From: Vulcanimicrobiota bacterium
GTDB lineage: Bacteria > Vulcanimicrobiota > Vulcanimicrobiia > Eremiobacterales > Eremiobacteraceae
Length of the DNA: 64,000 nucleotides
Reading direction: 5' to 3'
Assembly: GCA_963772515.1 (NCBI GenBank)
Contig: CAVYXC010000004.1
Location: 361,131 to 425,130, forward strand
Below the pieces are notes generated by a model. That model was not told the DNA's origin. It ran no database searches and was given only the letters and a program-made list of their open reading frames with translations. The position numbers and the translations under genes were made by a program. Shown piece by piece: positions 45,889 to 64,000 of the stretch (position 1 is the first letter of the stretch; each line of letters begins with the position of its first letter).

Positions 45889-45917
45889 TTAGCGGCACGA
45901 GCCCGTCCCGTAAATCC

Positions 45918-45946
45918 TTGACGAAAGAGGAGCCTCCCCCTATAAT
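45918..45946 (+). promoter_or_regulatory. Sigma-A/sigma-70 consensus promoter for sigH: -35 TTGACG (45918-45923), 17-nt spacer, -10 TATAAT (45941-45946)
   Basis: Perfect hexamers with optimal spacing, 64 nt upstream of sigH start; RBS GGAGG at about 45994. Confidence 0.6.
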
Positions 45947-46009
45947 CGGTAGGGCACATAACACAGGCATAATCATGCCGAGAAGCAGGGCCGGAGGTTC
46001 ATCAACAAC

Positions 46010-46657
46010 TTGGGGGCACTTCACCAAACGGAAGAAACCCTGGACTACAGCGAGCGAGCGGACGAAGAACTCGTCAATGCGGCCAAGTGCGGCGACAATC
46101 TGGCCATGGAGTTTCTGCTCAACAAGTACAAGAACTTCGTCCGTATCAAAGCCAAGAGCTACTTCCTCATCGGCGCAGACCGCGAAGACATCATCCAGGA
46201 AGGCATGATCGGCCTCTACAAGGCCGTGCGCGACTTCCGGGCCGATAAGCTGTCGTCGTTCCGCGCCTTCGCGGAGCTGTGCATCACGCGTCAGATCATC
46301 ACGGCCATCAAGACGGCCACGCGGCAGAAGCACATCCCGCTCAACCAGTACATCTCGCTCAACAAGCCGATCTACGACGAGGACAGCGAGCGCACGCTGC
46401 TCGACGTCATGGCGAGCGCGAAGATGTCGGATCCGGAAGAGCTGGTCATCAATCAGGAAGTCTCAGAAGACATCAAGGAGCGGATCCAGGAGAACCTGAG
46501 CGACCTCGAGTCGCAGGTGCTGCTGAGCTATCTCGAGGGCAAATCGTACCAAGAGATGGCGCGCGATCTCAACCGGCATGTCAAGTCGATCGACAACGCG
46601 CTCCAGCGCGTCAAGCGCAAGATCGAGAAGAACCTGAGCGAGGTCGAGCTCTACTAA
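46010..46657 (+). CDS. sigH: RNA polymerase sigma factor SigH (Spo0H-type)
   Basis: 215 aa; very high similarity to Firmicutes SigH (FLIGADREDIIQEGMIGLYKAVRDF, ELCITRQIITAIKTATRQKHIPLN, NRHVKSIDNALQRVKRK); position after rlmB as in Bacillus. Confidence 0.85.
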   Translation: MGALHQTEETLDYSERADEELVNAAKCGDNLAMEFLLNKYKNFVRIKAKSYFLIGADREDIIQEGMIGLYKAVRDFRADKLSSFRAFAELCITRQIITAIKTATRQKHIPLNQYISLNKPIYDEDSERTLLDVMASAKMSDPEELVINQEVSEDIKERIQENLSDLESQVLLSYLEGKSYQEMARDLNRHVKSIDNALQRVKRKIEKNLSEVELY

Positions 46658-46681
46658 GGCACGCGACAATCCAGCCACGTA

Positions 46682-46713
46682 GGACCCGAGCCACGCTCGG
46701 GTCCTTTCATTTC
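46682..46713 (+). terminator. Rho-independent terminator after sigH
   Basis: GGACCCGAGC-cac-GCTCGGGTCC stem followed by TTTCATTTC. Confidence 0.65.
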
Positions 46714-46789
46714 GGCTCCGCGCCGAAGAGGACCGCAGTGGAGCCTAGCGCAAAAGGACGGTCCCGTTTCTCACAAGGGGCGAATCAAC

Positions 46790-48790: not shown

Positions 48791-48794
48791 CGGA

Positions 48795-50375
48795 CTAGAG
48801 CGCGTCGATCGTCAGTGTCGTGTCTGCGTATTGCCACGCCGTCTTGAATTGCTGCTGCACGAGCGCAGCCTCGCCCGTCCGGCCCTGAGCCTCGAGCGCC
48901 GCCGCAAGACCGAACAAGGATCGGGGATTGCGCGGGTTGCGTTGCAGATCGGCGCGGAAGACCGCCTCGGCTTCAGTGTATCGGTGGAGCTGCAGCAGTA
49001 AGCCGCCCAGCGATTCGCGCACCGGATGGTACCAATCCGGCGGTTCGATGTAGATCAGACCGTCCTGCGCCTTGACCGCGCTCTGAAGCAGTGAAACTGC
49101 GGTCGCTGAATCGCCGCTGCCCTGAGCGATTTTCGCGCCGAGCTCGTCTTGCGCGATGCCGAGCAGATCCGATGAGCTGTTGGTGAACCCATTGATCGTC
49201 GGCACTTTGAGCTCGCCGTCGGCTGCTTTGACAGCGGCAAGCTCGACCTGGGCTTTTGCCGCGTCGCCGGTGGATGAGAAGGCCATACCGCGGCAGAAGT
49301 GCCAAAACGCGACTCGCATCGGCTCGTCGGGCGACGCAGCCGGCTGCGTCATCGCCGAGATCTCCGCCCAACGAGCGAAGCGCAAAGGCACGTACATTGC
49401 GGGTACCATGGCGCCCTCTGACGCGAGCCGATGTTGCGCCGCCGCGGCGCCCTGATAATTCCCCTGCACGCTGTACCCGTCCGCGAGCATCGTCAAGTTG
49501 TGGCCGTAGTAGCCGGATGCTTCGCGGTCCTCGTGCATCGCCAGATATGCCCGGTCGTGCTGCGTCGCGTGCTCGTTGCTCATCACGGCCGATTCGAACG
49601 CGCCGGTCCGCATGTACGTATGCGCGGGCATATGCACGAGGTGGGCCGCAGCCGGTTCGAAATTCATCGCGCCCAGACGCGACGCCGAGATCAACGCTCG
49701 CTCGGGAGACGTCGACGCCTCGGTCGCGTGGATATAGAAGTGGTTCGCGCCGATATGATCCGGCTCGCGCCGCAGCACCGATTCCAATGTCGCGACGATC
49801 GTCTGCGTGTCCGTGACGGGCACGCCCGCCGGCGTATACAGCGCCCAAGGGCGCAGATCCATTAAGCTCTCCGCGTAGAGCGTGGCCGCGTCGAGGTCGT
49901 CTGGGTACTGGGCCACCAATTGCTTCATCCCGGACGCATATGCAGCGTCGAGCTTTGCGAAATCGGGTTTCGCTGCGTTGGTATAGCGCGCAGCGAGGGC
50001 GCTGATCCACGCACGATCGAGATCGTCGGCACCCGCGGCGAGCTGCTGCGCTTTGCCCAATGCGGCAAACGCTGCGCGCTCGCCCGGCTCGTCGATCGGC
50101 ACGTTGATGTTCGAGCCGTAGGTCATCGCGATGCCCCACTGCGCCATCGCCAGATGCGGATCCGCAGCGGCGGCTTGCTCGAATGCCCGGCGCGACGCGC
50201 CGCGATTGAATGCGTACAGTAAGGTGAGACCCTGATCGAAATACGCTTGCGCTATCGGACTGGTGGTCGACACCGGATGGTGCTGGCGCGCCGGCGACGT
50301 CGCGGCGGGCATGTCCATGGCGGCCGCCAGCCCGCTTGTGGTGAGGATGAGCGACAGCACGGTGGCAAACAACAT
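48795..50375 (-). CDS. Secreted tetratricopeptide-repeat protein
   Basis: Internal Met of ORF 48795..50624 (MLFATVLSLILTTSGLAAAMDMPA signal peptide); RBS GGGAG; TPR-like helical repeats; upstream 83 aa of ORF likely spurious. Confidence 0.6.
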   Translation of the reverse strand: MLFATVLSLILTTSGLAAAMDMPAATSPARQHHPVSTTSPIAQAYFDQGLTLLYAFNRGASRRAFEQAAAADPHLAMAQWGIAMTYGSNINVPIDEPGERAAFAALGKAQQLAAGADDLDRAWISALAARYTNAAKPDFAKLDAAYASGMKQLVAQYPDDLDAATLYAESLMDLRPWALYTPAGVPVTDTQTIVATLESVLRREPDHIGANHFYIHATEASTSPERALISASRLGAMNFEPAAAHLVHMPAHTYMRTGAFESAVMSNEHATQHDRAYLAMHEDREASGYYGHNLTMLADGYSVQGNYQGAAAAQHRLASEGAMVPAMYVPLRFARWAEISAMTQPAASPDEPMRVAFWHFCRGMAFSSTGDAAKAQVELAAVKAADGELKVPTINGFTNSSSDLLGIAQDELGAKIAQGSGDSATAVSLLQSAVKAQDGLIYIEPPDWYHPVRESLGGLLLQLHRYTEAEAVFRADLQRNPRNPRSLFGLAAALEAQGRTGEAALVQQQFKTAWQYADTTLTIDAL

Positions 50376-50386
50376 CCTATCTCCCG

Positions 50387-50911
50387 TCAGCGGCGAGCAG
50401 CGAATTGGTTCGGATCGTAATTGGGAACTTTCGGGCGCGGGATGTCTCTCCACCATGCGCTGTAGTTGGCGAGCCATTCGAAGTTCTCGAACAAGTACTC
50501 GTTCTGGTTGTAGCGGCGCCAGTGGACGACGAAATCTTTGATCGTCGCCCACCGGTCGCGCAGCATGAAGCCGACCGCGTCGCAGATCAGCGTTACGTCG
50601 AGCACTTCGCGGCGCGCGAGACACGCGATGGTCTCGACGAATTGTCCGACCATGGAGAGCGCGCGCTCGTCGTCGGAGCCGAAGAATCTCTCCGCGATGT
50701 CTTTGTCCGTCGGATAGCGCCCGGCGACCCCGCGCAATTGCGTGAAGACGTGGACCACTTCGGTAGAGGTGAGCCGGTCGATAGCCTCCAGGATGGCCAC
50801 CGCGTTGCGCTCGTGCTCCATCTGACGCACTTGCCGCGAAAGCATGTACGTGGTGAAGACGACCGTCGCAAAAGCGATGACCAGCGACGCGATCGGGACG
50901 ATTTGCTGCAA
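50387..50911 (-). CDS. Uncharacterised membrane-anchored protein, paralog C of the family, 11 bp upstream of TPR gene
   Basis: 174 aa; TM helix; QVRQMEHERNAVAILEAI and FENFEWLANYSAWW motifs homologous to paralogs A and B. Confidence 0.5.
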   Translation of the reverse strand: MQQIVPIASLVIAFATVVFTTYMLSRQVRQMEHERNAVAILEAIDRLTSTEVVHVFTQLRGVAGRYPTDKDIAERFFGSDDERALSMVGQFVETIACLARREVLDVTLICDAVGFMLRDRWATIKDFVVHWRRYNQNEYLFENFEWLANYSAWWRDIPRPKVPNYDPNQFAARR

Positions 50912-51020
50912 GGCTAGAAACCCCCCGTCCAGGTTGCCACCTCAGCGTGCGAGAACCTCTCGCCGCAAGACTCGGAACTTCCGCACGGACGCTCGCGTTC
51001 TAGGGCTGACGGAGGTCGTT

Positions 51021-52244
51021 ATGTCGCAGTTTCGATCGATTCTTGCGTTGTGCGCAGCGGCGTTGTTGGCTCTCGCCGCGACCGGTCAGGCGTCGGCCGG
51101 TTACCTGGTCGCCAATGTTCAGGGCGGCAACACCGGGCCGGTGCGCGCGATGTCACCACCGCCGCGGCCGACACCCAAGCCGACGCCAACGCCGAAGCCG
51201 ATCCCGGCGCCATCGGATGTCCGCCCGGTGCAAAGCGTGCACGACTGCGCAGCGGCGCTCGCCCTGCTCGCGACCATCTGCGATAATGGCGTCAAGTCCG
51301 GCGACTTGCAGCTGCTCTGGAAAGACGGCGCGTCCAAGCTTGACGGTTATAAGGTCTACCGGGTCGATGGCAGCCATCACAACATCGTCGTGACGACCTC
51401 GAACGGCACATCGCCGAAGTACGCGCTGATCACCAAGCCTGGCGGAGGTTACAAAGGGGCGTGCTACGCGGTGACCGGGTATCTCGGAAACCGCGAATCG
51501 GCACGTAGCGAGAAATACTGTGTCGAGTCCGGATCGACGGCATCGACCGAAACCTTTTCACCGGCTCACGTGCGCTCGTATCTCACGTACATCGATCCCA
51601 CGATAACGGATCCGAACAATTACGCCAATACGCTTTCGTTGGCCGCGCTCATCTCCAAGCTGCAAGGGAGCAACTTTGGCGCGGAGCTGCCCTCACAGCT
51701 GCTCGCCGCGAATCGTTCGGTCTCGGTCGGCGGGAGCGCATATGTCGGCTATCAAGACGCCTACTATGCGGAGTCGATCGACACGAGTCAGTTCCGGACC
51801 GGCTACCCCAACGGCTACGCCAGGATCAAGTCGCGCGCCGGCTACGATTTCAATCTCGGCAAACTGTCGAACCGCAAGATCTATTCGGCGATCCTTACGC
51901 TCGACGTCGCGCAGACGGTGCAGGATACGGCCGGCCATACCCGCTTTCGAACCGACGACTACTCGTGCGCGGACACGTATTTGCTGGGCAAGGACTTTTG
52001 GTGGAGCTATAGCGGCGCACTGAACAACACGTCGAGTGGCGGTCACATCGGCCTCAAGTCGGGCCCAGTCGTCACGGTCGACGTCACAGGGACCGTTGAG
52101 AACTGGGCCGCTGACGGCAACCAGCGCTACTACGGCTTTATTTTGAGCAACGCCATCGCCGACACCAATGCGAAGCCGGCCTATCCCGATCTCGCCTGCT
52201 TCACGAAGTATTACAACGCGACGCTCAAGGTGATCTACTTCTGA
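51021..52244 (+). CDS. Hypothetical secreted protein with Pro/Thr-rich linker
   Basis: Internal Met of ORF 50844..52244 (MSQFRSILALCAAALLALAATGQASA); RBS GGAGG. Confidence 0.5.
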   Translation: MSQFRSILALCAAALLALAATGQASAGYLVANVQGGNTGPVRAMSPPPRPTPKPTPTPKPIPAPSDVRPVQSVHDCAAALALLATICDNGVKSGDLQLLWKDGASKLDGYKVYRVDGSHHNIVVTTSNGTSPKYALITKPGGGYKGACYAVTGYLGNRESARSEKYCVESGSTASTETFSPAHVRSYLTYIDPTITDPNNYANTLSLAALISKLQGSNFGAELPSQLLAANRSVSVGGSAYVGYQDAYYAESIDTSQFRTGYPNGYARIKSRAGYDFNLGKLSNRKIYSAILTLDVAQTVQDTAGHTRFRTDDYSCADTYLLGKDFWWSYSGALNNTSSGGHIGLKSGPVVTVDVTGTVENWAADGNQRYYGFILSNAIADTNAKPAYPDLACFTKYYNATLKVIYF

Positions 52245-52389
52245 GGGCTGCGCCGATCCGGGTCGCGATGAGTGGATAGCGGCCACCAGGTGCCGGAGTA
52301 CGACAACCTCGACGATTGGAATCTGTCCGCCATGGAGATGATCTACTACTACCGGGCGCATCTGCCCAACGGCCAATACGGAGTGGGGC

Positions 52390-52953
52390 ATGAATCGAAT
52401 TTCTGTCGCCGCATGTGCATGCGCGCTCGCGATGTGTGCAGGGGGTCGTGCAGCCGAGGCACATGTCTCGTCAACGCCACCCGTTCAAGGTTGCATGAAC
52501 CAATGGCTGTCCAATGGAGTCTGGGGCGTCCGCGTCACCGCGGTCCAGGTGTTGAGCGACAAGGTCGATGTCTCCGTCGTCTTGCGCAACGATACGACAA
52601 AGGCATGGCAGCCGAACACGGATGCGAAACCGTTTGGCTCTCCAAACCTTGCTGGGTTATCGCTCTCGTATAGCGGCGGCAACGCATTTACCATCGTCGA
52701 CTATACGGCAAGCATGGACTACGACCCAGCGCATCCGCGCAACACGCACGATGACGATCCTATGATGCACCGTCTCGCGCCGGGGGCGACGTACAAGACC
52801 GTCCTCTATTTCTACTTTCCGCAGTCTTCCGGGTTCCCGGCTGCCTTGGAAAAGCAGAGGCCGACCGAGTTTTGGGTCTACGACGACGAAGTTTTTCGCC
52901 ATATGGAATGGGGTGGGAACGCGATTCAAGTCAAGCTGGGATGCACGAAATAG
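52390..52953 (+). CDS. Hypothetical secreted protein
   Basis: 187 aa; signal peptide MNRISVAACACALAMCAGGRAAEA; RBS GGAGTGGGG. Confidence 0.45.
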   Translation: MNRISVAACACALAMCAGGRAAEAHVSSTPPVQGCMNQWLSNGVWGVRVTAVQVLSDKVDVSVVLRNDTTKAWQPNTDAKPFGSPNLAGLSLSYSGGNAFTIVDYTASMDYDPAHPRNTHDDDPMMHRLAPGATYKTVLYFYFPQSSGFPAALEKQRPTEFWVYDDEVFRHMEWGGNAIQVKLGCTK

Positions 52954-53017
52954 AGCGTCCTGCCTCCGGGTCCACCGTCTGATTGTGTCGTAAATCGTCC
53001 GAACGTGTGAATGTCCC

Positions 53018-53953
53018 GTGGCGACGATAGTAGAAACGGACGGTCACACGGCGCCTCTCGAGTCCCAAAGCGATGTTATCGACATGCAAGAACGCGCCTG
53101 GATGCATTTCAACGACGGGAAAATGCAGTTTTCCCTTCGGGGATCAAGCCACGACCGGTTCTGGACCGGATTCGAGGCGGCCCTCATCGAGACGTCGGGC
53201 GGCGTCAGCCAAGCCCGATATAACAATGCACACGGTATATCCGTGCAAGTGGGAGCGCCAACTCGCACGACGGCCCGTTGCGACGGGGCCGTGTCTCGAC
53301 GTTTGCAGGTCCCCGGCACCATTGATCTGATGCCGCTAGGCTTTTCGGGTGAGTGGCAGGACGAGGGCCCGACGGCTTTCCTCTGCATCCACCTGAGCCC
53401 ATCGCTCGTGCAAACGACGGCCGAGGAAATGGGCGTGAATCCCGATCGCGTCTCGATCTTACCGTTGCTTCAGTTCATGGATCCGCAGATCGAGCACATC
53501 GGCTGGGCCCTCAAAGCCGAATTGGAGACGCCCGAGCCGTCTGGTCGTCTCTACGCGGATGGTTTAGGACTGGCGCTGGCCGCGCACTTGCTCCGGCAGC
53601 ACGCGCCGCTTGTGCCCCGTATCACCAAAGGCTTACCGAAACGCCGGCTGCAACGCGTCACGGATTACATCCACGACCATCTGGCGCAGGACCTCCGACT
53701 CGCGCAGCTCGCGGAAATCGCAAGCGTCAGCCCATCGCATTTCAAGTCGCTGTTCAAACAATCCGTCGGCGTGCCCGTTCATCAATATGTCATCCGAAGC
53801 CGTGTGGAATATGCGGTCGACCTGCTGGTAAAAAGCACGATTCCTTTGAGCGATGTGGCGCTGCAGGCCGGTTTTGCAAACCAGAGCCACATGGCCCGCT
53901 GCGTGCGGCGCGTCACGGGGCTCACGCCAAGCAGTCTGCGCAATTTGACCTAA
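53018..53953 (+). CDS. AraC family transcriptional regulator
   Basis: 311 aa; C-terminal AraC HTH (SPSHFKSLFKQSVGVPVHQY, FANQSHMARCVRRVTG). Confidence 0.8.
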   Translation: MATIVETDGHTAPLESQSDVIDMQERAWMHFNDGKMQFSLRGSSHDRFWTGFEAALIETSGGVSQARYNNAHGISVQVGAPTRTTARCDGAVSRRLQVPGTIDLMPLGFSGEWQDEGPTAFLCIHLSPSLVQTTAEEMGVNPDRVSILPLLQFMDPQIEHIGWALKAELETPEPSGRLYADGLGLALAAHLLRQHAPLVPRITKGLPKRRLQRVTDYIHDHLAQDLRLAQLAEIASVSPSHFKSLFKQSVGVPVHQYVIRSRVEYAVDLLVKSTIPLSDVALQAGFANQSHMARCVRRVTGLTPSSLRNLT

Positions 53954-54224
53954 GGCCCGCCAGCCTTAGCGCCTAGCGCGATTTCCGTCCGTTCGTATTA
54001 AGGACCGCCCAAACGTGAGCGACGGCGGCGTCGTATACTGTTACTTTTGAGGGTCGACGCATCTCGTCTGCGTGACCGGCGCTGTCGCGCCGTCTGACGA
54101 TCGAGAATTGAGAGAAGAAAGTCGGTTCTCGTCGGGCTCCTGATCCAGGTAACATGGGCTCTGGCAGGCATCACGGGAACGCTCAATCGCTCGGTCGTCG
54201 CTTCAAGAAGGAACAAGGTAGACC

Positions 54225-57200
54225 ATGAAAGGTTTGCTGAAATTCGCCTTTTTGACGATCGTGGTGCTGCTTGTCCAGGGAACATGGGCACTGGCAGGCG
54301 TCACTGGATCGTTGAATGGCACAGTTCTGCAGGAGCAAACGCACGCGCCCGTCGCGCAAGCGAAGGTCACGGCGTCCTCTGCGAGTCAGACCTCAAGCAC
54401 AACGACCGACAATGGTGGTCACTTCGGTTTCGTCTCGTTAGTCCCCGACACGTACAGCGTGACGGTGGCCAAGGAAGGCACGATCGAGACGTTCGTGCAG
54501 CGCGGTGTGACCGTGCTCGCGGACCAAGTCCAACAACTCACGCTCGTGGTGAGGCCGTCGATCAAGACGCTGGCGACGGTCACGACGCGCGGGTCGACCG
54601 ATCTCGTCAAACCCGGCACGACTGCTAACGTCTACTCGGTCAACGCGGCCGCGCAGGCGCGCAGCGCAGTGCTCGGCGGCGGCGGCGGCGCCAACCAAGG
54701 CTACTCCGCCATCGCAGCGCTCCCTGGGGCCTACGTTCCGCCGGGTCAATCGGGCTGGTTCCAAGTCGTCAACATCCGCGGCGGCGACTACGACCAGGTC
54801 GGCTACGAGTTCGACGGCGTGCCGGTGAACCGGTCGTTCGACAACTACGCGTCGAGCAATCTGTCCGCCATCGGCCAGCAGGAGCTGCAGCTGTACACGG
54901 GCGCGGCGCCTGCCACAGCCGAGGGTCAGGGCTTGGCGGGCTACATCAACCAGGTCATCAAGAGCGGCACCTATCCGGGCTACGCCAATGTCGACCTTGG
55001 GATCGGCGGCCCGAACCTGTACAACAAAGCGAGCTTCGAAGTCGGCGGTGCGACCCCGAACCGCAACTTCTCCTACTACGTCGGCGTGGGCATCGCCAAC
55101 CAAAGCCCGCGCTACTATGACGAGAACAACGGCGCTAGCCAGAACTCGACCTACGGGTTGGTGTATGACATGGCACCGTCGGCGACCGTCGGCGGCACCT
55201 GCGGCACCGACGCCGTGCCTTCGAACTATGTGAAGTGCTACGCAAACACCGCGAACTCGATTCTCGGCCAGCCGGTCGGGCCAGGCGGCTACTACCTTGG
55301 ATCGATGAACATCCTCACGCCGAAGAATGAGCAAGACCATGAAAACGTCTTCAACTTCCACTTCGGCATTCCGCACAAGAACGACTCCGGTAAAGACGAC
55401 ATCCAACTGCTGTACGACACGTTCCAGCTGTACACGAATTTCTACAACAACCCCAACGATTGGGGCGGCGGCCCGAGCTTCTTCTCGCACAACCCTGGAA
55501 CGGTCGAAGGCCCGGGTCAGCCGTTGTACTTCTCAGGCGCACAATACATGACGCCTGTCGGCACGCTATTCACGTCGGCTGCGCCTGGACAGGTCAACAA
55601 CGTCGTGCCCTACGCTTACCCGAACGAAGGCAACGCCTTCCTGAACAACTCGTTTACCGGCACGAATATCCCGGGCAACAGTTATGAAGGGTATAGCAAC
55701 GGACTGTCCATCTACAAGCTCCAGTATCAGCACAACATCGGCACGTCGTCGTACCTGCGCGTGTACGGATACATCGACTACTCGTGGTGGTTCATTCAGG
55801 ACCCGATGGGGGCTTATAATCTGGACTTCGCCCTCGCCCCCGACTACGAGCTGTCGACGCATACGCGCGGCGCATCGGCAAACTACGTCAATCAGCTCTC
55901 GCCCAAGAACCTGCTCAACATCGAAGGCACGTATTCGACGGCGAGCACCGTGCGCGACAACAACACGCAGATGTTCGACACGCTGTCGGGCGCGCGCGGC
56001 GACGTGGCACAGCTCGTCAGCGCCACTAACCCGACCAGCGGCATCTGCTACAACGTGGCGAATCCGGGCGTGCCGGCATCGTGCCTCAAAGCCAGCGCCA
56101 ACGCAGGGCCGCTGGACGCTAACTACCTCACGCTTGGCAACCTCACGTGCGGCGCCAACTGCCTGGGATCGATCGGCAACTTCTTCGGTCCCGGTGTGGG
56201 CATACCGGCCCCAAGCGCTACAGCGTGTGGCGGACCCTGCGCGTGGTACGTGTCCGAGAACGGCCCATATGCCACGTACAATACGGTGACACCCCGCTTC
56301 TGGGGCGTGTCAGCGCAAGACACCTGGAAGCCGAACGATCGCCTGAACTTCAACATCGGCGTGCGCGATGACATCTACACGTTCGTCTACACGCCGACGG
56401 GGACAGGCACGCGACCGTACTGGTTCAACGCCTGGAACGCGGTGTCGTGCGTCAATCCGCTCTTCAACGGTGGAAATCCGATCGACGAGACGTCGCCTGG
56501 CGGAGGCCTAACGCCTCAGGTGGCCGGCACGCCGTGTTCTGCGCTCGGAGCTGGGTTCACGCAGGCGACGCTGACCGATACGACGGCCAACGGCGGCCAG
56601 ATCACCTACAACGAACTCGAACCGCGGTTCGGCGGAACGTACTCGTTCAGCACCAACGACGTGCTGCGCTTCTCGGCGGGCCGCTACTCGGAGCCGGCCA
56701 ACGCGGCGTTCCAACAGTACGACAGCTTGGACCAAGACCTGCCTGAGCATCTGCTCGGGTCGCTGTTCTACAAGTACGGGTTCACGTCGCCTAACCACGT
56801 GGTCAGCCCGTCGATCTCGTATAACTACGACCTGTCGTGGGAGCACCAGTTCGCCAACACGCAGACGTCGCTCGTGCTGACGCCGTTCTTGCGCAAGACG
56901 AACAACCAGGTCCAGCAGATCTACATCAGCCCGCAGACGGCGTTCGTTTCCGGCCTGAATGTCGGTAACGAGACGAACCTCGGGCTCGAGTTCTTGGCGA
57001 ACATGGGCAACTTCAACAACAACGGCTTCGCCGGCCAGCTGGCGTACACGTATACGCACAGCTACGTCACATACAACCCGCTACCGACCGGACAGTCCGT
57101 GTTGGGGCAGGACAACATCGATATCCAGCACTACAACTCGTTCACCTCGGCCTGCGTCGGTGCGGTAGCCTCCTCTAGCCCCACAAGCATGTGCGGCACG

Positions 57201-57953
57201 GACGGCGGCAACAACGCGCTGCCGACCGAAGTGGGCGGCGTCGCCAACCCGTACTACAACGCACCAGCACAAGGGCTGCTTAGCTCGACCGCACAGTACG
57301 CGCCGTACTCCATCGTTCCCGTCGGCGTACAGCTGTCGTCGCTGAGCTACGTGGTGCCGCACGTCGTGACGCTCATCGTCCAGTACAAGAAGGACAAGTG
57401 GGCGTTCGTTCCGTCGTTCCAGTTCCACGGCGGACAGAAGTACGGCGCCCCCGAGACGACGTACGGCTTCGATCCGAGCAGCTGCACGGCGGCGTTGGCG
57501 AACCCGGTCACGGGCGACCCGCGCTATCCGTACGGCGGCAGCGGCACAGCGGCCGACGCGACGAGCTGCACGGGTTCGCTGGTCGTCCCCGATCCGTACA
57601 CCGGCAAATTCGATCAACCCGGTGCATTCACTGAGCCGAACCAGTACAGCTTGCACATGGGCATCTCATATGCCGCGACGCCTCGGGTCTCGTATCAGCT
57701 CAACCTGGCGAACATCGTCAACTACTGCAGTGGCGGATCTAAGGAGCCCTGGATCTTGAACGACAACCACTGGTGCCTGTATAGCAATAGCGCCGGGTTC
57801 TTCCCGCCGGTGGGCAACTTCTACAATCCCGGGGATACGATCCAACCGCAGTTCAAGTATCCCTACTTCGTCAACGCGACAGGCGACAACGGCACGACCT
57901 ATGGCGTGGTCGTTCCGTTCAACGCCACCTTCAACATCCAGATCAAGATGTAA
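54225..57953 (+). CDS. TonB-dependent receptor-like outer-membrane protein with carboxypeptidase regulatory-like N-domain (paralog of 14919..18161)
   Basis: 1242 aa; signal peptide; CarbopepD_reg-like domain; plug-like region (VNIRGGDYDQVGYEFDGVPVN). Confidence 0.65.
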   Translation: MKGLLKFAFLTIVVLLVQGTWALAGVTGSLNGTVLQEQTHAPVAQAKVTASSASQTSSTTTDNGGHFGFVSLVPDTYSVTVAKEGTIETFVQRGVTVLADQVQQLTLVVRPSIKTLATVTTRGSTDLVKPGTTANVYSVNAAAQARSAVLGGGGGANQGYSAIAALPGAYVPPGQSGWFQVVNIRGGDYDQVGYEFDGVPVNRSFDNYASSNLSAIGQQELQLYTGAAPATAEGQGLAGYINQVIKSGTYPGYANVDLGIGGPNLYNKASFEVGGATPNRNFSYYVGVGIANQSPRYYDENNGASQNSTYGLVYDMAPSATVGGTCGTDAVPSNYVKCYANTANSILGQPVGPGGYYLGSMNILTPKNEQDHENVFNFHFGIPHKNDSGKDDIQLLYDTFQLYTNFYNNPNDWGGGPSFFSHNPGTVEGPGQPLYFSGAQYMTPVGTLFTSAAPGQVNNVVPYAYPNEGNAFLNNSFTGTNIPGNSYEGYSNGLSIYKLQYQHNIGTSSYLRVYGYIDYSWWFIQDPMGAYNLDFALAPDYELSTHTRGASANYVNQLSPKNLLNIEGTYSTASTVRDNNTQMFDTLSGARGDVAQLVSATNPTSGICYNVANPGVPASCLKASANAGPLDANYLTLGNLTCGANCLGSIGNFFGPGVGIPAPSATACGGPCAWYVSENGPYATYNTVTPRFWGVSAQDTWKPNDRLNFNIGVRDDIYTFVYTPTGTGTRPYWFNAWNAVSCVNPLFNGGNPIDETSPGGGLTPQVAGTPCSALGAGFTQATLTDTTANGGQITYNELEPRFGGTYSFSTNDVLRFSAGRYSEPANAAFQQYDSLDQDLPEHLLGSLFYKYGFTSPNHVVSPSISYNYDLSWEHQFANTQTSLVLTPFLRKTNNQVQQIYISPQTAFVSGLNVGNETNLGLEFLANMGNFNNNGFAGQLAYTYTHSYVTYNPLPTGQSVLGQDNIDIQHYNSFTSACVGAVASSSPTSMCGTDGGNNALPTEVGGVANPYYNAPAQGLLSSTAQYAPYSIVPVGVQLSSLSYVVPHVVTLIVQYKKDKWAFVPSFQFHGGQKYGAPETTYGFDPSSCTAALANPVTGDPRYPYGGSGTAADATSCTGSLVVPDPYTGKFDQPGAFTEPNQYSLHMGISYAATPRVSYQLNLANIVNYCSGGSKEPWILNDNHWCLYSNSAGFFPPVGNFYNPGDTIQPQFKYPYFVNATGDNGTTYGVVVPFNATFNIQIKM

Positions 57954-57976
57954 CGCTCCGGTCTGGAAATCAATGA

Positions 57977-58016
57977 GGCCGGCGGCTCTGCGTGCCGCCG
58001 GTCTCTCTTTTTTCGC
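57977..58016 (+). terminator. Rho-independent terminator after receptor-like gene
   Basis: GGCCGGCGGC-tctgcgt-GCCGCCGGTC stem followed by TCTCTCTTTTTT. Confidence 0.7.
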
Positions 58017-58027
58017 CCGGCTGTGCT

Positions 58028-58093
58028 CGGAGAGGAAGGAACGGACACGCGTCAGAACGCGTGAAACCCTGTTCACGCGATAGCAGTCGCGAC
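58028..58093 (+). repeat. Copy 1 of about 55-65 bp repeat containing inverted repeat CGCGTGAA-N4-6-TTCACGCG, upstream of small gene 58117
   Basis: Near-identical to 59228..59336 copy. Confidence 0.6.
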
Positions 58094-58116
58094 ACCGGAA
58101 ATAGGAAGTTTGTAGG

Positions 58117-58308
58117 ATGATCCGCGTTGGTGATCATGTCGTCGTGCGCGGCGAAGATGAGGAAGCAATCGTGACCGCAGTGCATCCCGACTCACAAGTA
58201 GAGATCGAGTACCTTCACGCATCGGCTAGCGGCGCGCGGCGCAAACGCTACGCCGCGGAGGCGCTTGAGGTCATCGAGGGCGGTCGCGGCGAGCGGTCAC
58301 AGGGTTGA
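58117..58308 (+). CDS. Hypothetical small protein
   Basis: 63 aa; AGGAAG RBS-like 13 nt upstream. Confidence 0.35.
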   Translation: MIRVGDHVVVRGEDEEAIVTAVHPDSQVEIEYLHASASGARRKRYAAEALEVIEGGRGERSQG

Positions 58309-58329
58309 TTCCGTAGTTCAAGGGACTTC

Positions 58330-58734
58330 TTGGATAATTTCGGGTTCATGGATTCGTGGCCGGCGCGGGTGCGGTGGCTGCTTGTTCTTCCTGTCGCCGC
58401 GGCGTGTTACGGTCTGTCAATGGGGCTCTTTCTCGTCATGTTTAACATCGTCTGGCACCTCCGCGGTAGTTTCAATGGGCTCTTCGATGTGGTAGTGGCG
58501 ATCTGCAGCGCTGCGTTTGTATGGCTTAGCCTCGCGACCGCCCCGCGTTTCAAATTGCTGGTAGCACTGGTTCTCGCCCTTGTTCCTCTCGCCTATGCCC
58601 GTTCAGAGTACGCGGCTTATCCAGCTGGCGGGGTCGCTATAGCTGTCGGCGTCTTCCTCGCGTGGGGGCTAGCGCTCTGGGGCTATCTCCGGCGGCGTCG
58701 AGTCGCTTTGCCATCCCGAGCTTCAGATGCCTGA
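58330..58734 (+). CDS. Hypothetical membrane protein
   Basis: 134 aa; 3-4 predicted TM helices. Confidence 0.4.
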   Translation: MDNFGFMDSWPARVRWLLVLPVAAACYGLSMGLFLVMFNIVWHLRGSFNGLFDVVVAICSAAFVWLSLATAPRFKLLVALVLALVPLAYARSEYAAYPAGGVAIAVGVFLAWGLALWGYLRRRRVALPSRASDA

Positions 58735-58957
58735 CAAGATCGGGATGCGCTGGCTCATCATCTTGACCGCGTGCGGACTCATACTGCTTGCGTTTGCTAC
58801 GGCTGCAGGGACACGCATCGGCAACTGGGAGATATGCGGATTTCATAATTACCCACTATGCACGGAGTGGAGGGTCGTTGCGTTCCTTGAGAGCTGTGCG
58901 GTTGTACTCATTGCCACCGGGGCTCTTATCGCCAACGAGCACCGTCCTGCGTCGTGA
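58727..58957 (+). CDS. Hypothetical small membrane protein
   Basis: 76 aa; two TM helices. Confidence 0.35.
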   Translation: MPDKIGMRWLIILTACGLILLAFATAAGTRIGNWEICGFHNYPLCTEWRVVAFLESCAVVLIATGALIANEHRPAS

Positions 58958-59058
58958 AGATGCCTTCACCGCGTTGGCTCGCCGTCGCTTCTCAGGCCTC
59001 GCAGGCGCGTCCTAGGGTGCCTAAGAAAACAGCACTTAGGGTCGCTCAGGAAAATAGT

Positions 59059-59088
59059 GCCGGCGTAGCTCAGGGGTAGAGCAGCGGT
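59059..59088 (+). other. tRNA-like 5' fragment (acceptor 5' strand plus D-arm: GCCGGCGTAGCTCAGGGGTAGAGCAGCGG), no complete cloverleaf
   Basis: Strong match to canonical tRNA 5' half; no matching 3' acceptor strand or T-arm downstream. Confidence 0.5.
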
Positions 59089-59102
59089 TTTGTAATTCTC
59101 GC

Positions 59103-59139
59103 AGGACGTGTCGTCGAGGGATGGCACGTCCTTTTTTCC
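59103..59139 (+). terminator. Rho-independent terminator immediately after tRNA-like fragment
   Basis: GGACGTG-(14 nt loop)-CACGTCC followed by TTTTTTCC. Confidence 0.65.
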
Positions 59140-59227
59140 TCGTGAGGATGCTGTAGAAGGTTGCTCAGGTCCGCGCGCTGACGCATCGTCCGTGACCACG
59201 GCGTGACCACGAAAGTCTCACGTTTCA

Positions 59228-59336
59228 GCGGAGAGGAAGGAACGAACATGCGACAGAACGCGTGAAACTGTTCACGCGACCCCTCATTTCGAGCACCATC
59301 CGCAGTCCAAGATAAGCAGTCGCGACGCTCAGCGAG
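59228..59336 (+). repeat. Copy 2 of repeat (extended form), upstream of small gene 59361
   Basis: CGGAGAGGAAGGAACGAACATGCGACAGAACGCGTGAAACTGTTCACGCGA...AGCAGTCGCGAC. Confidence 0.6.
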
Positions 59337-59360
59337 TTTGACTCACCCGCACAGCTCCGC

Positions 59361-59645
59361 GTGGTGCGCCCGAGGAACCTCATGGGAAAATCGCGGTTTA
59401 AGAAAAGCGGAATGCCTCTCCCGATGCTGCTAGACTTGCGGAGCATCCTGGCTCGTAGACGCCCCGACTTGCTTCCAGCCATGGACAAAGAGCTCGATCC
59501 TAAAACCGGCGATGCGATCTGTGGCGCCATAACCGAGGAACTAGCGAATGTCGGGATTGGCGATGACGGGGAAATCAACAAGCGTGGTCTTGTGTTAGAT
59601 GACCTGATCGACCGCGTCGGCCGACTCTCCAACGAGCGAAAATAG
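59361..59645 (+). CDS. Hypothetical protein
   Basis: 94 aa ORF following repeat copy 2. Confidence 0.4.
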   Translation: MVRPRNLMGKSRFKKSGMPLPMLLDLRSILARRRPDLLPAMDKELDPKTGDAICGAITEELANVGIGDDGEINKRGLVLDDLIDRVGRLSNERK

Positions 59646-59691
59646 CCCGTCGGCCCCCTGGGCCGACCCGAATTTGGAACTTTGACACACC
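59645..59691 (+). repeat. Direct repeat DR1 (about 47 bp) with internal hairpin GTCGGCC-ccctg-GGCCGAC, immediately after 59361 gene
   Basis: About 80% identical to DR2 at 59916..59963. Confidence 0.55.
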
Positions 59692-59700
59692 CGTGCGATC

Positions 59701-59871
59701 ATGAACAAAACCTGGACCCTCTTGGTCGTCGCTCTTATTTCATTGGGCGTCGCAATAACGGCTATTGGATTTCCTCGCACTTTAAAGAGGCTCACTGGTC
59801 GGACTGGCCTCAATGAGAAAATGGCACCCGACCTTTTCGTTCGCGCGTGGGGGTGGTTCTGGCGGTTATGA
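59701..59871 (+). CDS. Hypothetical small membrane protein (56 aa), not in ORF track
   Basis: ATG..TGA verified in frame; MNKTWTLLVVALISLGVAITAIGF TM helix; flanked by DR1 and DR2; weak RBS. Confidence 0.3.
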   Translation: MNKTWTLLVVALISLGVAITAIGFPRTLKRLTGRTGLNEKMAPDLFVRAWGWFWRL

Positions 59872-59915
59872 CTGGCTTTATCGTCTGGGCGGCATTGTAC
59901 GGTTAATCCGAGAAA

Positions 59916-59963
59916 CCCCGGTCGGCCCCTAGGCCAGCCCGAATTCTGGACTTTGACCACCGC
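59916..59963 (+). repeat. Direct repeat DR2
   Basis: CCCCGGTCGGCCCCTAGGCCAGCCCGAATTCTGGACTTTGACCACCGC. Confidence 0.55.
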
Positions 59964-60207
59964 ACGCGTCAGAGAAATTTTTCCCGATTCTTGCGAGCTT
60001 CTTGAGCCAATGGTCTTGAAACTTTGTTCGTCGGGTGTCGGATTGTCCGAGCACCAACCGAGAAAGCACTTCCTCCAGGCATTTGCGCTTCTGGCGGTCC
60101 CTATCACGTTTCCGCGTCGTGAAATCAGATATCGACCAAGGAGGAGGTGGGCCGCCCGAGAATCCCGACACCGGGGGATCGAGCACATGCAAAGTTAGGG
60201 GGTTCTT

Positions 60208-60489
60208 ATGTCCCTTTCTAAACGCATAGCTACGATTTTGACTCTAGCAACAATCATTACAGCATCGTCGATCAGCGTAGTAAAGGCCGGCCCGCCTCCT
60301 AAAGGTGCAAACACAGGGAGCGACTGCCAGGTCACCATTTACGGGGTCGGCAACAGCTCTGGGGTAGTCTGCGACTATGTAACGATTACGGTCTGCACAA
60401 ACGGGGGGTCGTCCGTAAGTGGAAGATGGTCAACGATATGCCCCGGTGCTCCTTGTGGAGCTACCACTAATCCTCTTGAGTGTCCCTAG
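60208..60489 (+). CDS. Small secreted cysteine-rich protein (6 Cys in about 67-aa mature part)
   Basis: 93 aa; signal peptide; strong RBS AGGGGGT; lower-GC region. Confidence 0.5.
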   Translation: MSLSKRIATILTLATIITASSISVVKAGPPPKGANTGSDCQVTIYGVGNSSGVVCDYVTITVCTNGGSSVSGRWSTICPGAPCGATTNPLECP

Positions 60490-61229
60490 TGCTCTCGCGT
60501 CTTTTCTTCGCGGGGCTTCTGGCATGCACGCTTTTAGCGAGTAGTCGGAGCGTCGTCGCGTCAGACCAGGTAGCTGTCCCGTCAAGCCTGATCTTCCTTT
60601 CGCCATCGCTCAGTGCGGCCCAACAATATACTTGGGAGTTTGTCCACACGCGCGAAGGTCAGATCATCCGGGCGAAAATAGCGTGTACTGTTCAGCAGGA
60701 ATCGGCCACCGGGTACAGGTTGCAACCGGAGCTTACTGTCGGGAAGAGTGCCCCCGAAAAGAGACCGCTCTACGACTACAAGAACGGAGTCGCTTTTGGC
60801 GCCGGGGACGAGGCGCTTCGTCATACGGCAGTCTGCCCATTCTACTATACTGCGGACTTTGGCGTTCCGCCGGATAACGTGAGTGTCGGAACGACGTGGC
60901 AGTATGACACGCCGGCGTCATATCAAAGCGATCTGATAGCAAATGCCCACGTGACCGCGACCATCACCAGCCTTGACCCAATCACGAAAGAGGCAAAGAT
61001 TCATGTCGTCTTCTCTGGGAGTGGGCCGTTCACCGACCCAGAGAATACCGGTCATCCGGTTACTCAGAATGGGAAAGGAACTGTAGACCTCGACATCATC
61101 AACGGAGGCGTAATCAAGGAGCGGCTCTTCAAAGTTCACGATAACGTTGGTCTCGCCGGGACGACAATGGACGAGGATATCACGGTTCATATTACCTTCA
61201 CTGGCGTTAGTGAGGTAAACAACCAGTAA
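60480..61229 (+). CDS. Hypothetical secreted protein
   Basis: 249 aa; signal peptide; GTG start overlapping upstream gene. Confidence 0.45.
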   Translation: MSLVLSRLFFAGLLACTLLASSRSVVASDQVAVPSSLIFLSPSLSAAQQYTWEFVHTREGQIIRAKIACTVQQESATGYRLQPELTVGKSAPEKRPLYDYKNGVAFGAGDEALRHTAVCPFYYTADFGVPPDNVSVGTTWQYDTPASYQSDLIANAHVTATITSLDPITKEAKIHVVFSGSGPFTDPENTGHPVTQNGKGTVDLDIINGGVIKERLFKVHDNVGLAGTTMDEDITVHITFTGVSEVNNQ

Positions 61230-61248
61230 GTCCGCCAGGCGGCACAAC

Positions 61249-63613
61249 TTGAGGATTAGTAAGCGTTTCGGACTTGTTCTTCTACAGCTCATGGGGGGGG
61301 TGGTTTCTTCCTTCCTTCTGTGTCACTCCGCCTTCGCGGATTCAGCGGGCGCGCTAGACGTTATTGTGACGTCGACAGAAAATCACTCGCCCATCGCGGA
61401 AGCACACGTGTTTCTCCTGGGTTGGAGCAGCTCCACGACCAAAGGGTTGGTGACCGACCGATATGGTCGCATCCAGATAGGCGATGTTGAACCTGGCACA
61501 TATCGACTAATTGTAAGATCTTCAGGATATGCCGACGCCCGACAAGACATATCTGTGCGTGACAGCGCAGTTACCTCAGTCAATGTTCAGCTCGCGCGAA
61601 TGCTAAAGACGCTCGCCGTGGTTCGAGCTAACAGCACCATGACCGAGGCCTCGACGGTCACCCTTACTGATCGCTCGGCCGAGCGAAAGCTATCGAGCAA
61701 CCTAATCAGTGCGATTAACCTTTTGGCCGGCGCAAATGTTAGCCTAAGCGCGGACGGACAGTTTAATGCAGTCTCGATTCGTGGCCACGATCCGACTGCC
61801 ACGGGATACAATGTCGGCGGCCTAAGAGTCGGCGGATCGGTCGCGCAATATGCCTTCGATCCGGATATGCTCAACAGTGCGCAAATCGACTTGCAACACG
61901 AGCAAGTAGCGTTGCTCTTGAAGGGGCCATCAAGTGACCCTACTTATAGTGTCGATCAACTAGCCGGTGGCTTCGAATCTTCTCGGCTCAGCATGATGGT
62001 TCAGGACACCAGCGGAGCAACCGGCTTTGTATTAGCCCACGTGAATCGAGATGGGGTGAGCGCACTTAACGGAGCGAGCTATCTAGACGAAAGCGGTTTG
62101 AGCTATGCGCATTTAGGTACATACCACGCGCAGAGCTCCATGGCCAGAGTGGTGGCGCCACTCTCGCCCGATTGGCGAGCTTCTTTTGAGTATTTAAGCT
62201 CTTACGGGACGACGGCCCAGCTTCCTGACATTTGGTCCGGGCCAGTTCCCGAAGGGTTTGGCCCTGGGAACTTTCTCTATCGCGACAACCACACATTTGG
62301 CTTTTCAATTAACGGTACGGTGGGCCCATGGCTAGTCAGCGCGGACCTGGGAACGATTCGATGGAAGAATACGACCGATGATCAATCGCGCATCGTCGCG
62401 CTTGCGCCGCTTCCAAGCGTCTCGGTGTTCTACGGTTACGCCAATCCATTCTCGATGGTCCTAACGCGCTCGATCACCGCGGATCATGGATATACTATCC
62501 TGCTCAACGACTACGTATACCATTCGCAAACGGCATCGAACTCTTCGCAAAGTTTCGGGGGCGACCTATTTGGGACAACGCAAAGAGATGCTTCGCTGGA
62601 GATGCGGGATGAGCGTCAATATCCTCCGCGCCGCCTATCTTTAACCTCGGATATCAGCCTTTTAACCACATGGACGACAACTTGGCGACCGCAGGTAGAC
62701 GAAACACTTCACGCGCGTCGGGGCGCCACGACCTGGACCGTCGAAGGGGCATACGGCGCAGTTCAATCTTATGGGATTGCTCAGCAGCCATTTGATGACC
62801 CCGCCTCGGCGACGTTTGACTGCAACCATGATTACATCATCGCCCACGCCCCGGGAGACACGAATTCAGATCTTAATGCGGCATCGCTTAGTCTGGGGTT
62901 CTCGCAGACCTTGCGGCACGCGTCGATTTCTGCTACGGCCTACAGCGAGGTCGATACAAACGCTCTTATCTCGACGGCGCTGGTTCCGGCAGGTTACCAA
63001 TGAGCCGACAGGATTCATCCCTCCGGGATACCTTCAGGCTCTGGCTGCCGGCTACGCGAGTTACGGGGGCTGCCAGGCGAGCGAGTCAGCGCCTTCCATC
63101 CTGTTACAGCAGTCGGTCGGTGGCCTAGAAATAGGCTATCAGGGTATTGATATGAGGTCGCGTTGGGACGTCGCTCCGGGGATTGTATTAACCGGCTCGC
63201 TGGCACTGACGCGTGCCGTGCTCCAGGCGTATGACCAAAGACTCAAATCTTCGGTCTCGCCGTACATTGGCGGTCAACAACTACCAAATGTTCCTGCGCA
63301 AGAACTGTCTCTTACCGAGGACTGGGGATGGAGAGACGGCAGAACTGAGCTCCTCGCGAATCAGCTAGCCTTATCTGGGAATAACGAACAGAATCTCCCA
63401 CCCTACATTCTGCTCACTGCCGGCGTAGAGCGCCGATTGTCCGATGCGGCCATGATCACGATCGTCGCGACAAATGTCACGCACGAGTACACGGGCCTCT
63501 TTATTTCCTCTGCCAATGCGATACCATTGGCGACTCGGGGAGGCAATCTTCCGACCCTTGCAGTTCCTTTGCCTCAGGCCCGCTTAACGGCCGACCTTAG
63601 ATTTCACTGGTGA
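61249..63613 (+). pseudogene. TonB-dependent receptor-like gene (third paralog) with apparent frameshift near 63000; G8 homopolymer at 61294-61303
   Basis: ORF 61249..63003 (CarbopepD_reg-like plus plug-like N-part) continues in +1 frame as ORF 62771..63613 ending in receptor-typical C-terminal aromatic (RFHW). Confidence 0.45.
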
Positions 63614-64000
63614 GCCGAGACGGAGGGAGGCGCCAAGGGATGCGTTGCGTGGCTTACGCTGATAAAAACCAAGGCATCAAAGGCGTCCGTCAAGCGGATG
63701 CGAGCCTCGCTAGGATCGCCGACGTAATAGAGACCGCCGATCATCCGAATAGGCCGCGGCGAGTCGAGCCAGCGGCCAAGCGTTGAATCAGCGGCGATAT
63801 CACGGAGGGTCAACGCGAGCGCTGACGGACCAGCCAATCGCAGAACCGATTCGCTTGTGCCCGGACTAGCGGATTCAACGTTGAGGGCCTCGACCGACAA
63901 ACCAAGCCGATTATCCCGGACAGGGACAGCTAGAATCTGGCCGCGATCGAAGGTGGAGGCGATTACAAATAGCGATCTGCCGTACCACTGGCGAAGATAC

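Follow-up and report, generated by a model that had tools for sequence, protein, structure and literature searches.

The segment and its features

We analyzed a stretch of 64,000 nucleotides (the window) from a metagenome-assembled genome (MAG) of the Eremiobacterota. To our knowledge, this phylum has no cultured representatives and is known solely via metagenomes. We focused on positions 57954-61248, which a preliminary description had presented as an islet of low GC content, and on a probable integrative element that begins within this segment, at a broken threonine tRNA gene. The features are listed below with their coordinates in the window; "o" plus a number denotes an open reading frame (ORF), L plus a number denotes a locus or contig that we fetched for comparison, and three numbers separated by slashes are substitutions against relatives at codon positions 1, 2 and 3.

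54225-57953: 1242-aa receptor gene with CarboxypepD_reg and Plug domains (domain match)
57975-58011, + strand: intrinsic terminator of the 1242-aa receptor gene (12-bp hairpin and T-run at 57975-58005)
58028-58114, + strand: repeat D1a, short form (profile-extended), between the terminator and the start of o63
58117-58308, + strand: o63, small soluble hypothetical protein (90.6% nucleotide identity to L092; 3/3/12)
58330-58734, + strand: o134, polytopic membrane protein with 4-5 hydrophobic spans (87% nucleotide identity to L088/L092; 8/8/36)
58727-58957, + strand: o76, candidate ORF with two hydrophobic spans (a ~250-nt stretch absent from L088/L092)
58989-59015, + strand: putative remnant of an integrase 3' end (..GLAGAS*), from homology to remnants in L088/L092 and L084 and to the integrase 3' ends of L098/L099
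59059-59095, + strand: orphan 5' half of tRNA-Thr(UGU), putative attL core (37-mer identical to intact genes)
59096-64000, + strand: probable left 4.9 kb of a ~18-kb low-GC integrative element (match to L082/L097, composition)
59103-59138, + strand: terminator-like hairpin (13 bp and T6), directly after the junction, with its stem kept in L082
59192-59209, + strand: tandem repeat GTGACCACGGCGTGACCA, predicted arm-type integrase-binding motif of the P' arm, 97-114 nt right of the junction
59229-59344, + strand: repeat D1b, long form (profile-extended), the zone where L081 switches
59361-59645, + strand: o94, hypothetical protein, first ORF of the element; its start is probably the ATG at 59383, behind GAGGAA
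59641-59691, + strand: repeat D2a, a GC-rich hairpin and then CGAATTTGGAACTTTGAC
59701-59871, + strand: o56, small ORF with an N-terminal hydrophobic segment
59913-59962, + strand: repeat D2b
60208-60489, + strand: o93, signal-peptide-like, with 6 Cys (19/17/41)
60480-61229, + strand: o249, secreted orphan protein with an N-terminal hydrophobic stretch (47/31/114)
61249-63613, + strand: third receptor gene (CarboxypepD_reg/Plug/TonB-barrel), broken here and intact (772 aa) in L081
63604-64000, - strand: 3' end of an erythromycin-esterase-like gene of the element, which runs off the window

The GC content of the segment is 0.569, as compared to a mean of 0.644 ± 0.019 (minimum 0.594) for equal-sized windows in 1-57953, so GC does drop after the terminator of the second receptor gene, as first reported. 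The lowest values (0.54-0.56) are at 59600-60200. The low-GC stretch extends past 61248: it reaches the end of the window and continues for ~12 kb more in the related contigs L082 and L097 (GC 0.56). At the junction behind the tRNA half, GC steps from 0.59 to 0.56. Right of this junction (59096-64000), GC is 0.558 instead of the 0.644 ± 0.017 of the host part of the window, and the tetranucleotide signature correlates with that of positions 1-50000 at just 0.65, versus 0.88-0.95 elsewhere. The proposed check of GC and k-mer usage thus singles out this DNA, whose composition is unlike the host's, as expected for an island.

Positions 45000-58000 have intermediate GC (0.60-0.63), which is lower than in the first 45 kb (0.65) and higher than in the element (0.56). 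Genes for TonB-type receptors are GC-poorer than their surroundings, also at 14-19 kb.

The segment had been described as one unit, which it is not. It straddles (i) the end of another segment (52275-58112, 5.8 kb), which holds the receptor gene and D1a and is missing in L092; (ii) ~1 kb that is common to relatives (o63 and o134) and resembles an older, decayed element; (iii) a putative attL junction at 59095/59096; and (iv) only the first 2.1 kb of the ~18-kb element, which runs off the window.

A broken tRNA gene and its intact counterparts

Positions 59059-59095 are identical to the first 37 nt of the intact tRNA-Thr(UGU) gene in all 14 of the 14 metagenome contigs that carry this 37-mer, so the truncated tRNA-like sequence of the preliminary description is an exact tRNA half. 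It comprises the acceptor strand, the D arm, the 5' strand of the anticodon stem, and the loop TTTGTAA. The break is exactly behind the anticodon loop (TTTGTAA/TTCTCGC), at tRNA position 38/39, so that the fragment corresponds to positions 1-38. In the intact genes, the 37-mer continues as ACCGC..GGTTCGAATCC..CGCCGGC. For a functional tRNA gene at 59059-59095, ARAGORN reported none in the window and Rfam gave nothing at E ≤ 10. A split or intron-containing tRNA is ruled out, as we found no matching 3' half, T arm, or 3' acceptor strand in the window, L081, or L082.

Among the 14 loci with the 37-mer, L088 and L092 are closely related to this region. The order in L092 is the end of a 466-aa gene (window 51412-52274, 90% identity), o63 (90.6%), o134 (86.6%), the region upstream of the tRNA, and an intact tRNA-Thr gene. 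L088 contains a D2-like repeat, o134 (87.4%), an intact tRNA-Thr gene, and the same downstream DNA as L092. In both, the tRNA gene is followed by a terminator and an Lrp/AsnC-like gene, which are unrelated to the window from 59096 onwards. Overall, o63 and/or o134 and the region upstream of the tRNA are common to the window and these two loci at 77-90% nucleotide identity. Because L088 and L092 share the left flank and have an intact tRNA gene, the flank is chromosomal and everything to the right of 59095 is not shared. These loci appear to represent the uninterrupted ("empty") site. The preliminary description had suggested comparing the segment with related genomes, and it is indeed absent from L088 and L092, which share the left flank.

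From its sequence, the half at 59059-59095 would be the partial tRNA copy that marks the end of an integrated element. The displaced fragment is apparently the 5' part of the tRNA, with the host flank on its 5' side, which is the arrangement expected for a 5'-distal element.

Alternatively, the tRNA half and the terminator behind it could be a maintained small-RNA gene: a mimic of a tRNA half, made from the old tRNA promoter, that would itself be functional (a decoy or regulator, for example). The half agrees with the functional consensus at 37/37 positions while L082 differs at 18% of the next 100 nt, a strong terminator comes no more than 7 nt later and has kept its stem in L082, and the upstream tRNA promoter region is retained. 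However, the identity of the half may simply mean a recent event or gene conversion. Also, a tRNA-Tyr half in L081 has no terminator behind it, and the terminator by itself accounts for the fold z-score of -2.6. We consider a small-RNA gene very unlikely, and it would add to integration instead of replacing it.

The element and its integrase

Homologs of o249 led us to contigs L081 and L082. L081 is 99.9% identical to window 59340-64000. L082 and L097 match window 59091-64000, and in them this block runs for 17.6 kb at a GC of 0.56; the identity of the window to L082 is mosaic. The cargo of this block includes o94, o56, o93, o249, the third TonB-type receptor, the erythromycin-esterase-like gene, small membrane or secreted proteins, a paralog of o134 (L082 9224-9889), and a HipA_2-like gene. 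At its right end are fragmented genes with DUF3631 (primase-associated), an HTH_17 gene (AlpA/excisionase-type), and a tyrosine integrase gene on the + strand.

The integrase (L097 15419-16312) has the domains Phage_int_SAM_3, Phage_integrase, and Arm-DNA-bind_4, the last of which scores at the cut-off (22.2 versus 22.3 bits). The end of the contig cuts the gene. A full-length copy of the integrase (386 aa) is present on a MAG contig of 702,924 nt that also encodes a HipA_2-like protein. A scan of viral contigs with the integrase found 0 relatives. The element thus seems to encode a tyrosine integrase, with the gene lying outside of the window on a contig that matches 59091-64000.

Related integrases lie upstream of intact tRNA genes

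For the window's own element, only the position and direction of the integrase gene are known, from L097. We also examined the loci of its homologs (49-87% identity). Each integrase gene is followed by an intact, co-directional tRNA gene 100-135 nt downstream. The tRNA is Thr-CGU in L098, Lys-CUU in L099, Ser-UGA in L100/L101 and L102, and Sec (selenocysteine) in L104/L105. It is Thr-UGU itself in L084, where just the last ~65 codons of the integrase gene survive, along with the arm repeat described below. Seven homologous loci, which amount to five or six independent sites, have the integrase upstream of, and co-directional with, the intact tRNA. In the loci with integrase homologs, the tRNA is followed by ordinary host or housekeeping genes, and in L104 the GC climbs from ~0.54 to 0.63 at the tRNA. 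We found no orphan 5' halves at the far ends of the elements in L098, L100, L102, and L104, where the flanks that are covered are shorter than the elements.

The motif GT[GA]ACCA-N1-4-GTGACCA lies between the integrase and the tRNA in L084, L098, L099, L100/101, and L104/105. The only other site in the 1.79 Mb of fetched loci is at window 59192 (which corresponds to L082 102). If an integrase has an arm-binding domain, both arms of attP should contain such sites. These repeats are probably arm-type integrase-binding sites, as found in other islands of this kind. The proposal that the segment was horizontally acquired is borne out by the atypical composition, the absence from relatives that share the left flank, the junction in a tRNA gene with arm-type repeats nearby, and the tyrosine integrase at the far end.

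In L098, L100, L102, and L104, a protein of 270-280 aa without a Pfam match is always encoded directly upstream of the integrase gene and overlaps it (L098 6732-7571, L100 9153-9998, L102 4332-5171, L104 4394-5203). A gene with HTH_17 and a primase/AAA_25 gene lie divergently upstream of it. The protein may be an accessory recombination factor.

These loci bear on a simpler explanation of the broken tRNA, which is that an ordinary deletion or rearrangement, not site-specific, removed the 3' half of tRNA-Thr and juxtaposed unrelated low-GC DNA. Only one junction is visible in the window, the neighborhood is rich in insertions and deletions (both 52275-58112 and o76 are absent in L092), and the mosaic identity to L082 would also fit. 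But such an event would not be expected to break the tRNA exactly at the end of the anticodon loop, or to leave a second tRNA (the tRNA-Tyr of L081) broken at the same position. Nor does it account for arm-type repeats ~100 nt from the break, as beside the homologous integrases, or for a related integrase gene at the other end of the block. We consider a deletion scar to be quite unlikely. An insertion of the IS200/IS605 type, 3' of TGTAA and with a subterminal hairpin, is ruled out by the ~18-kb block, the tyrosine integrase, and the arm sites.

A proposed route of integration

We think that this locus is likely to be a tandem site of tRNA-targeted integrative elements, at which a ~18-kb element integrated into tRNA-Thr(UGU) from the 5' side. 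Several observations underlie this proposal: half of a tRNA gene is orphaned, relatives have an empty site, related contigs contain the integrase and accessory genes, arm repeats are present, and the homologous integrases point towards their tRNAs. Because of the orientation of the integrases towards their tRNAs, and because the repeat near the junction is shared, the element would integrate from the 5' side of the tRNA.

In this scheme, the tyrosine integrase, whose N-terminal domain is of the arm-binding type, would recombine the element with the anticodon loop of tRNA-Thr(UGU), in the reverse of the usual orientation. The element would lie on the 5' side of the tRNA and would carry its own tRNA 5' half, probably with a promoter as well, beside the 3' end of the integrase gene. 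At the element's right end, beyond the window (~13 kb), this element-borne 5' half would be fused to the 3' half from the chromosome, and we infer that an intact tRNA-Thr gene is present there. The original 5' half (59059-59095) would be stranded at the left end as attL. The P' arm would start at 59096 and would include the terminator (59103-59138) and GTGACCA..GTGACCA (59192-59209). At the attP junction, we would expect the integrase, the arm, and the tRNA 5' half to be joined to TTCTCGCAGGACG. The terminator probably stops read-through from the orphaned tRNA promoter; its stem is kept in L082 despite 4 substitutions.

Several points weigh against this account. The right end of the element (the rest of the integrase gene, the P arm, tRNA-Thr, and the Lrp/AsnC flank) is outside of the data: the window ends at 64000 and L097 ends inside the integrase gene. 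More broadly, no single contig covers both ends of any member of the family. The join between the half and the element depends on the window's assembly, as only the final 5 nt of the half are present in L082. L081 has a tRNA-Tyr half and a different arm of ~137 nt in place of 59059-59228, which a single simple integration does not explain. The sequence right of the crossover (TTCTC) forms no clear dyad with the anticodon stem. Finally, the view that 58028-59058 is an older element (see below) comes from an integrase stub of ~7 codons, which is better preserved in L088, L092, and L084.

We also considered whether the assembly is chimeric, with the islet from another organism or from a free circular element joined to the host at the conserved 37 nt of the tRNA. 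The 37-mer is identical across bacteria whose GC ranges from 0.50 to 0.70, both L082 and L081 end at or near a tRNA half, and GC and tetranucleotide usage shift at the join. On the other hand, the two sides of the join are linked: the element contains a paralog of o134, which lies left of the join; D1 is found on both sides; and D2-like copies are beside o134 or o63 in L088 and L092. Furthermore, the path across the attL-type junction is what is expected of the integrated state, and the element's integrase and HipA_2-like genes are on the 702,924-nt MAG contig. These observations make a chimera highly improbable.

A possible older element and an alternative left end

Just upstream of the tRNA, L088 and L092 retain DDSAARALQEALAGAS*, which is 75-81% identical over 16 residues to the C-termini of the integrases of L098 and L099. 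By itself this is a weak match (E = 0.03-0.3). Because remnants of an integrase gene lie upstream of the tRNA, the tRNA 5' half and the DNA upstream of it would have come from an earlier element of the same family that has since eroded. Thus, 58028-59058 (D1a, o63, o134, o76, and the integrase stub) appears to be the remains of an older element at the same tRNA, and o63, o134, and o76 would now occupy its place. The presence of an o134 paralog in the young element, and of D2-like repeats beside o63 and o134 in L088 and L092, is consistent with this.

The first 234 nt of L081 (JGI 3300055389 Ga0566199_00065712) are an alternative left end for the same cargo. Positions 59-97 are the 5' half of a tRNA-Tyr(GUA), which is also broken after the anticodon loop. 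This half is followed by 137 nt with a tandem repeat (GTGTGGGCAA x2) and then by a diverged D1. The first 15 nt of L081 may be the end of an integrase gene. Finding the same cargo behind two attL-type junctions suggests either module exchange at D1 or a second specificity of the integrase. The tRNA-Tyr left end may also be a misjoin.

One could go further and imagine that this clade of integrases is dedicated to replacing the 5' half and promoter of many tRNAs, including tRNA-Sec, and that the orphan halves function as tRNA-half RNAs or as landing pads for exchange of att sites. We think this idea is unlikely to be correct. If it were, then the orphan halves, with a tRNA promoter and the element's terminator, would be expressed as stable RNAs (decoys or regulators), or else they would let elements swap their att modules, as with the tRNA-Thr and tRNA-Tyr left ends of the same cargo.

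Repeats D1 and D2

The preliminary description had noted two pairs of direct repeats, and both are present. The two copies of D1 (58028-58080 and 59229-59279) are 53 nt long and 90.6% identical, and a profile extends them to 58028-58114 and 59229-59344. The conserved blocks are GGAAGGAAC, a hairpin (CGCGTGAA-loop-TTCACGCG), and AGCAGTCGCGAC. Each copy lies between a terminator and the ORF with which a string of genes begins. Among the fetched loci, D1 is found only in the window and in L081/L082, and a metagenome scan with the D1 pattern gave 0 matches, although the pattern detects the copies in the window and loci. It is in the zone of D1b that L081 switches from unrelated sequence to 99.9% identity with the window.

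D1 is most likely a promoter or 5'-untranslated-region module that heads gene strings; D1a looks like such a module because it is placed between the terminator and the start of o63. D1 would also be a place where related elements recombine. We ruled out an operator of the LexA or Cheo type: the loop of the palindrome is 4 nt in one copy and 6 nt in the other, so an operator with fixed spacing is disfavored.

D2 (59641-59691 and 59913-59962) is a GC-rich hairpin followed by CGAATTYGGAACTTTGAC. L081/L082 have five co-oriented copies, and there are weaker ones in L088, L084, and L092. D2 is absent from the remaining 62 kb of the window and from 80 Eremiobacterota loci. Judging from where the copies lie, both D1 and D2 seem to occur only with this family of elements.

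The segment had also been called cassette-like. An integron-like or other cassette array would consist of small promoterless ORFs between recombination sites (D1 or D2), shuffled by a dedicated recombinase. Small ORFs do alternate with repeats in the same orientation, five co-oriented copies of D2 lie within ~7 kb, and the contigs differ exactly at D1. But the alignments of D1 and D2 lack the attC architecture: the repeats have neither the R''-L''/L'-R' arrangement nor a GTTRRRY core. There are two families of repeats with irregular spacing, instead of a uniform array, and D2 flanks minus-strand genes too. D1 resembles a promoter module, as it comes after terminators and before ribosome-binding sites. 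We found no IntI-type integrase in the window or in related contigs, and the sole recombinase, which lies beside a tRNA, is an integrase of the phage type that has SAM-like and arm-binding domains. In the integron sense, the description does not hold, and we consider a cassette array to be extremely improbable.

Small genes and neighboring DNA

The description of the segment as containing only small hypothetical genes was accurate: none of the small ORFs of 57954-61248 has a match in Pfam, NCBIfam, or PHROGs. We compared these ORFs to relatives and counted substitutions by codon position. Because substitutions concentrate at third codon positions in o63, o134, o93, and o249, at least these four are real genes. 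A 197-aa ORF on the minus strand (59595-60188), which was called as a gene on L081, is probably spurious, as it covers both copies of D2 as well as o56.

By Kyte-Doolittle plots, o134 has 4-5 hydrophobic spans, o76 has two, and the N-termini of o56, o93, and o249 are hydrophobic, in agreement with the report of several membrane or signal-peptide proteins. The cysteine-rich secreted protein of 93 aa that was reported is o93, which has 6 Cys and a signal-like N-terminus. Of the small proteins, for which a homology search had been suggested, o63 has a relative in L092, o134 has relatives in L088 and L092, and o249 has homologs in L081/L082. A search of a whole library (1.84 billion representatives) found only 18 weak, distant relatives of o249, and these have no informative domains.

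The third receptor gene is split into frames of 584 aa and 280 aa by an insertion of 4 bp relative to L081 (GTTA, 62993-62996). Besides this insertion, L081 differs from the window by 6 SNPs (single-nucleotide polymorphisms) over 4.6 kb. The block with o93, o249, and the third receptor (60191-63290, compared to L082 1100-4200) is just ~73% identical to L082, and its flanks (59191-60190 and 63491-64000) are ~100% identical. This is the pattern that replacement of alleles by recombination would leave in a module of surface proteins.

To the left, the 5.8-kb segment 52275-58112 contains o187, an AraC-type regulator, the 1242-aa receptor, its terminator, and D1a. In L092, which lacks this segment, o63 stands 39 nt after the 466-aa gene. 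We saw neither a target duplication nor a recombinase at the ends of 52275-58112. The closest relatives of the 1242-aa receptor are all from MAGs of the Eremiobacterota (Vulcanimicrobiota/Baltobacteraceae), and the nearest species genome is L001 (93% amino acid identity). When the window was compared with the 80 receptor loci closest to its own, the homology at the nucleotide level to the nearest species (L001 and L003) extended only over 53009-58010 (the AraC-type regulator, the receptor, and the terminator) and both flanks differed, which fits an island or a general lack of synteny alike. The homology to L001 stops at 58010, in the receptor's terminator, and none of the 80 loci contains a relative of the islet's ORFs.

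In L084, an unrelated contig, the gene downstream of tRNA-Thr (5901-6512) resembles two ORFs near the start of the window, at 82-666 and 2414-2983 (39% amino acid identity); these belong to a multi-copy family.

Implications and relation to known systems

This locus gives a concrete case, at the level of sequence, of mobile DNA in the Eremiobacterota, with an integrase, arm sites, a core, and target tRNAs. It also indicates that integration at the 5' side of tRNAs, which is rare, can be the rule for an entire clade of integrases. Software that finds islands by seeking 3' fragments of tRNAs would miss such elements or place their boundaries incorrectly. Integration would explain why this neighborhood varies between strains, including its genes for TonB-type receptors. 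For annotation, the "islet" is best viewed as an att junction and the edge of a larger element, and not as self-contained.

Like the cassette arrays of integrons, this variable region has short ORFs of unknown function among co-oriented repeats. It differs from them in lacking IntI, attI, and attC, and in that its repeats are heterogeneous and one of them resembles a promoter module.

Tandem arrays of integrative elements at a single att site are known (Mageeney et al., bioRxiv 10.1101/2020.01.24.918748). As in those arrays, a younger element seems to lie beside older remains at the same tRNA, and there are signs of recombination (breakpoints at D1 and mosaic identity). However, the older unit here is ~1 kb with only a stub of an integrase, so the array would not consist of two complete units.

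The element shares several features with canonical tRNA islands and with P4-like and lambda-like prophages: a crossover in the anticodon loop, predicted arm-type sites for the integrase on both attP arms, atypical GC, and polymorphism for presence or absence. It also shares with them a module of an integrase, an HTH_17/AlpA-type protein, and primase-type genes. An anticodon-loop class of integration sites was reportedly defined by Williams in 2002. Canonical elements carry the 3' part of the tRNA: the complete gene remains at the end next to the integrase (or the left end), and the direct repeat at the distal end is a 3' fragment. In our element, by contrast, a 5' half is the distal fragment.

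A "reversed target gene orientation" of integrative elements at tRNA genes is said to have been described by Zhao and Williams in 2002. Recombination that leaves the 5' part at the distal end is described as uncommon in the part of the literature that we draw on, which lists further cases in archaea (PMC6563490, citing Zhao & Williams 2002). By that description, these elements resemble ours in having a tyrosine integrase, a crossover inside the tRNA gene, the element upstream, and a 5' fragment left at the far end. Ours differs in that its host belongs to the Eremiobacterota, and the att structures are likened by description only. It also differs in that an entire clade of integrases (49-87% identity) is oriented in this way, at tRNAs for Thr-UGU, Thr-CGU, Lys-CUU, Ser-UGA, and Sec. 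The element is a further case of a kind of integrative element that is known but seldom reported, from a phylum that is still uncultured.

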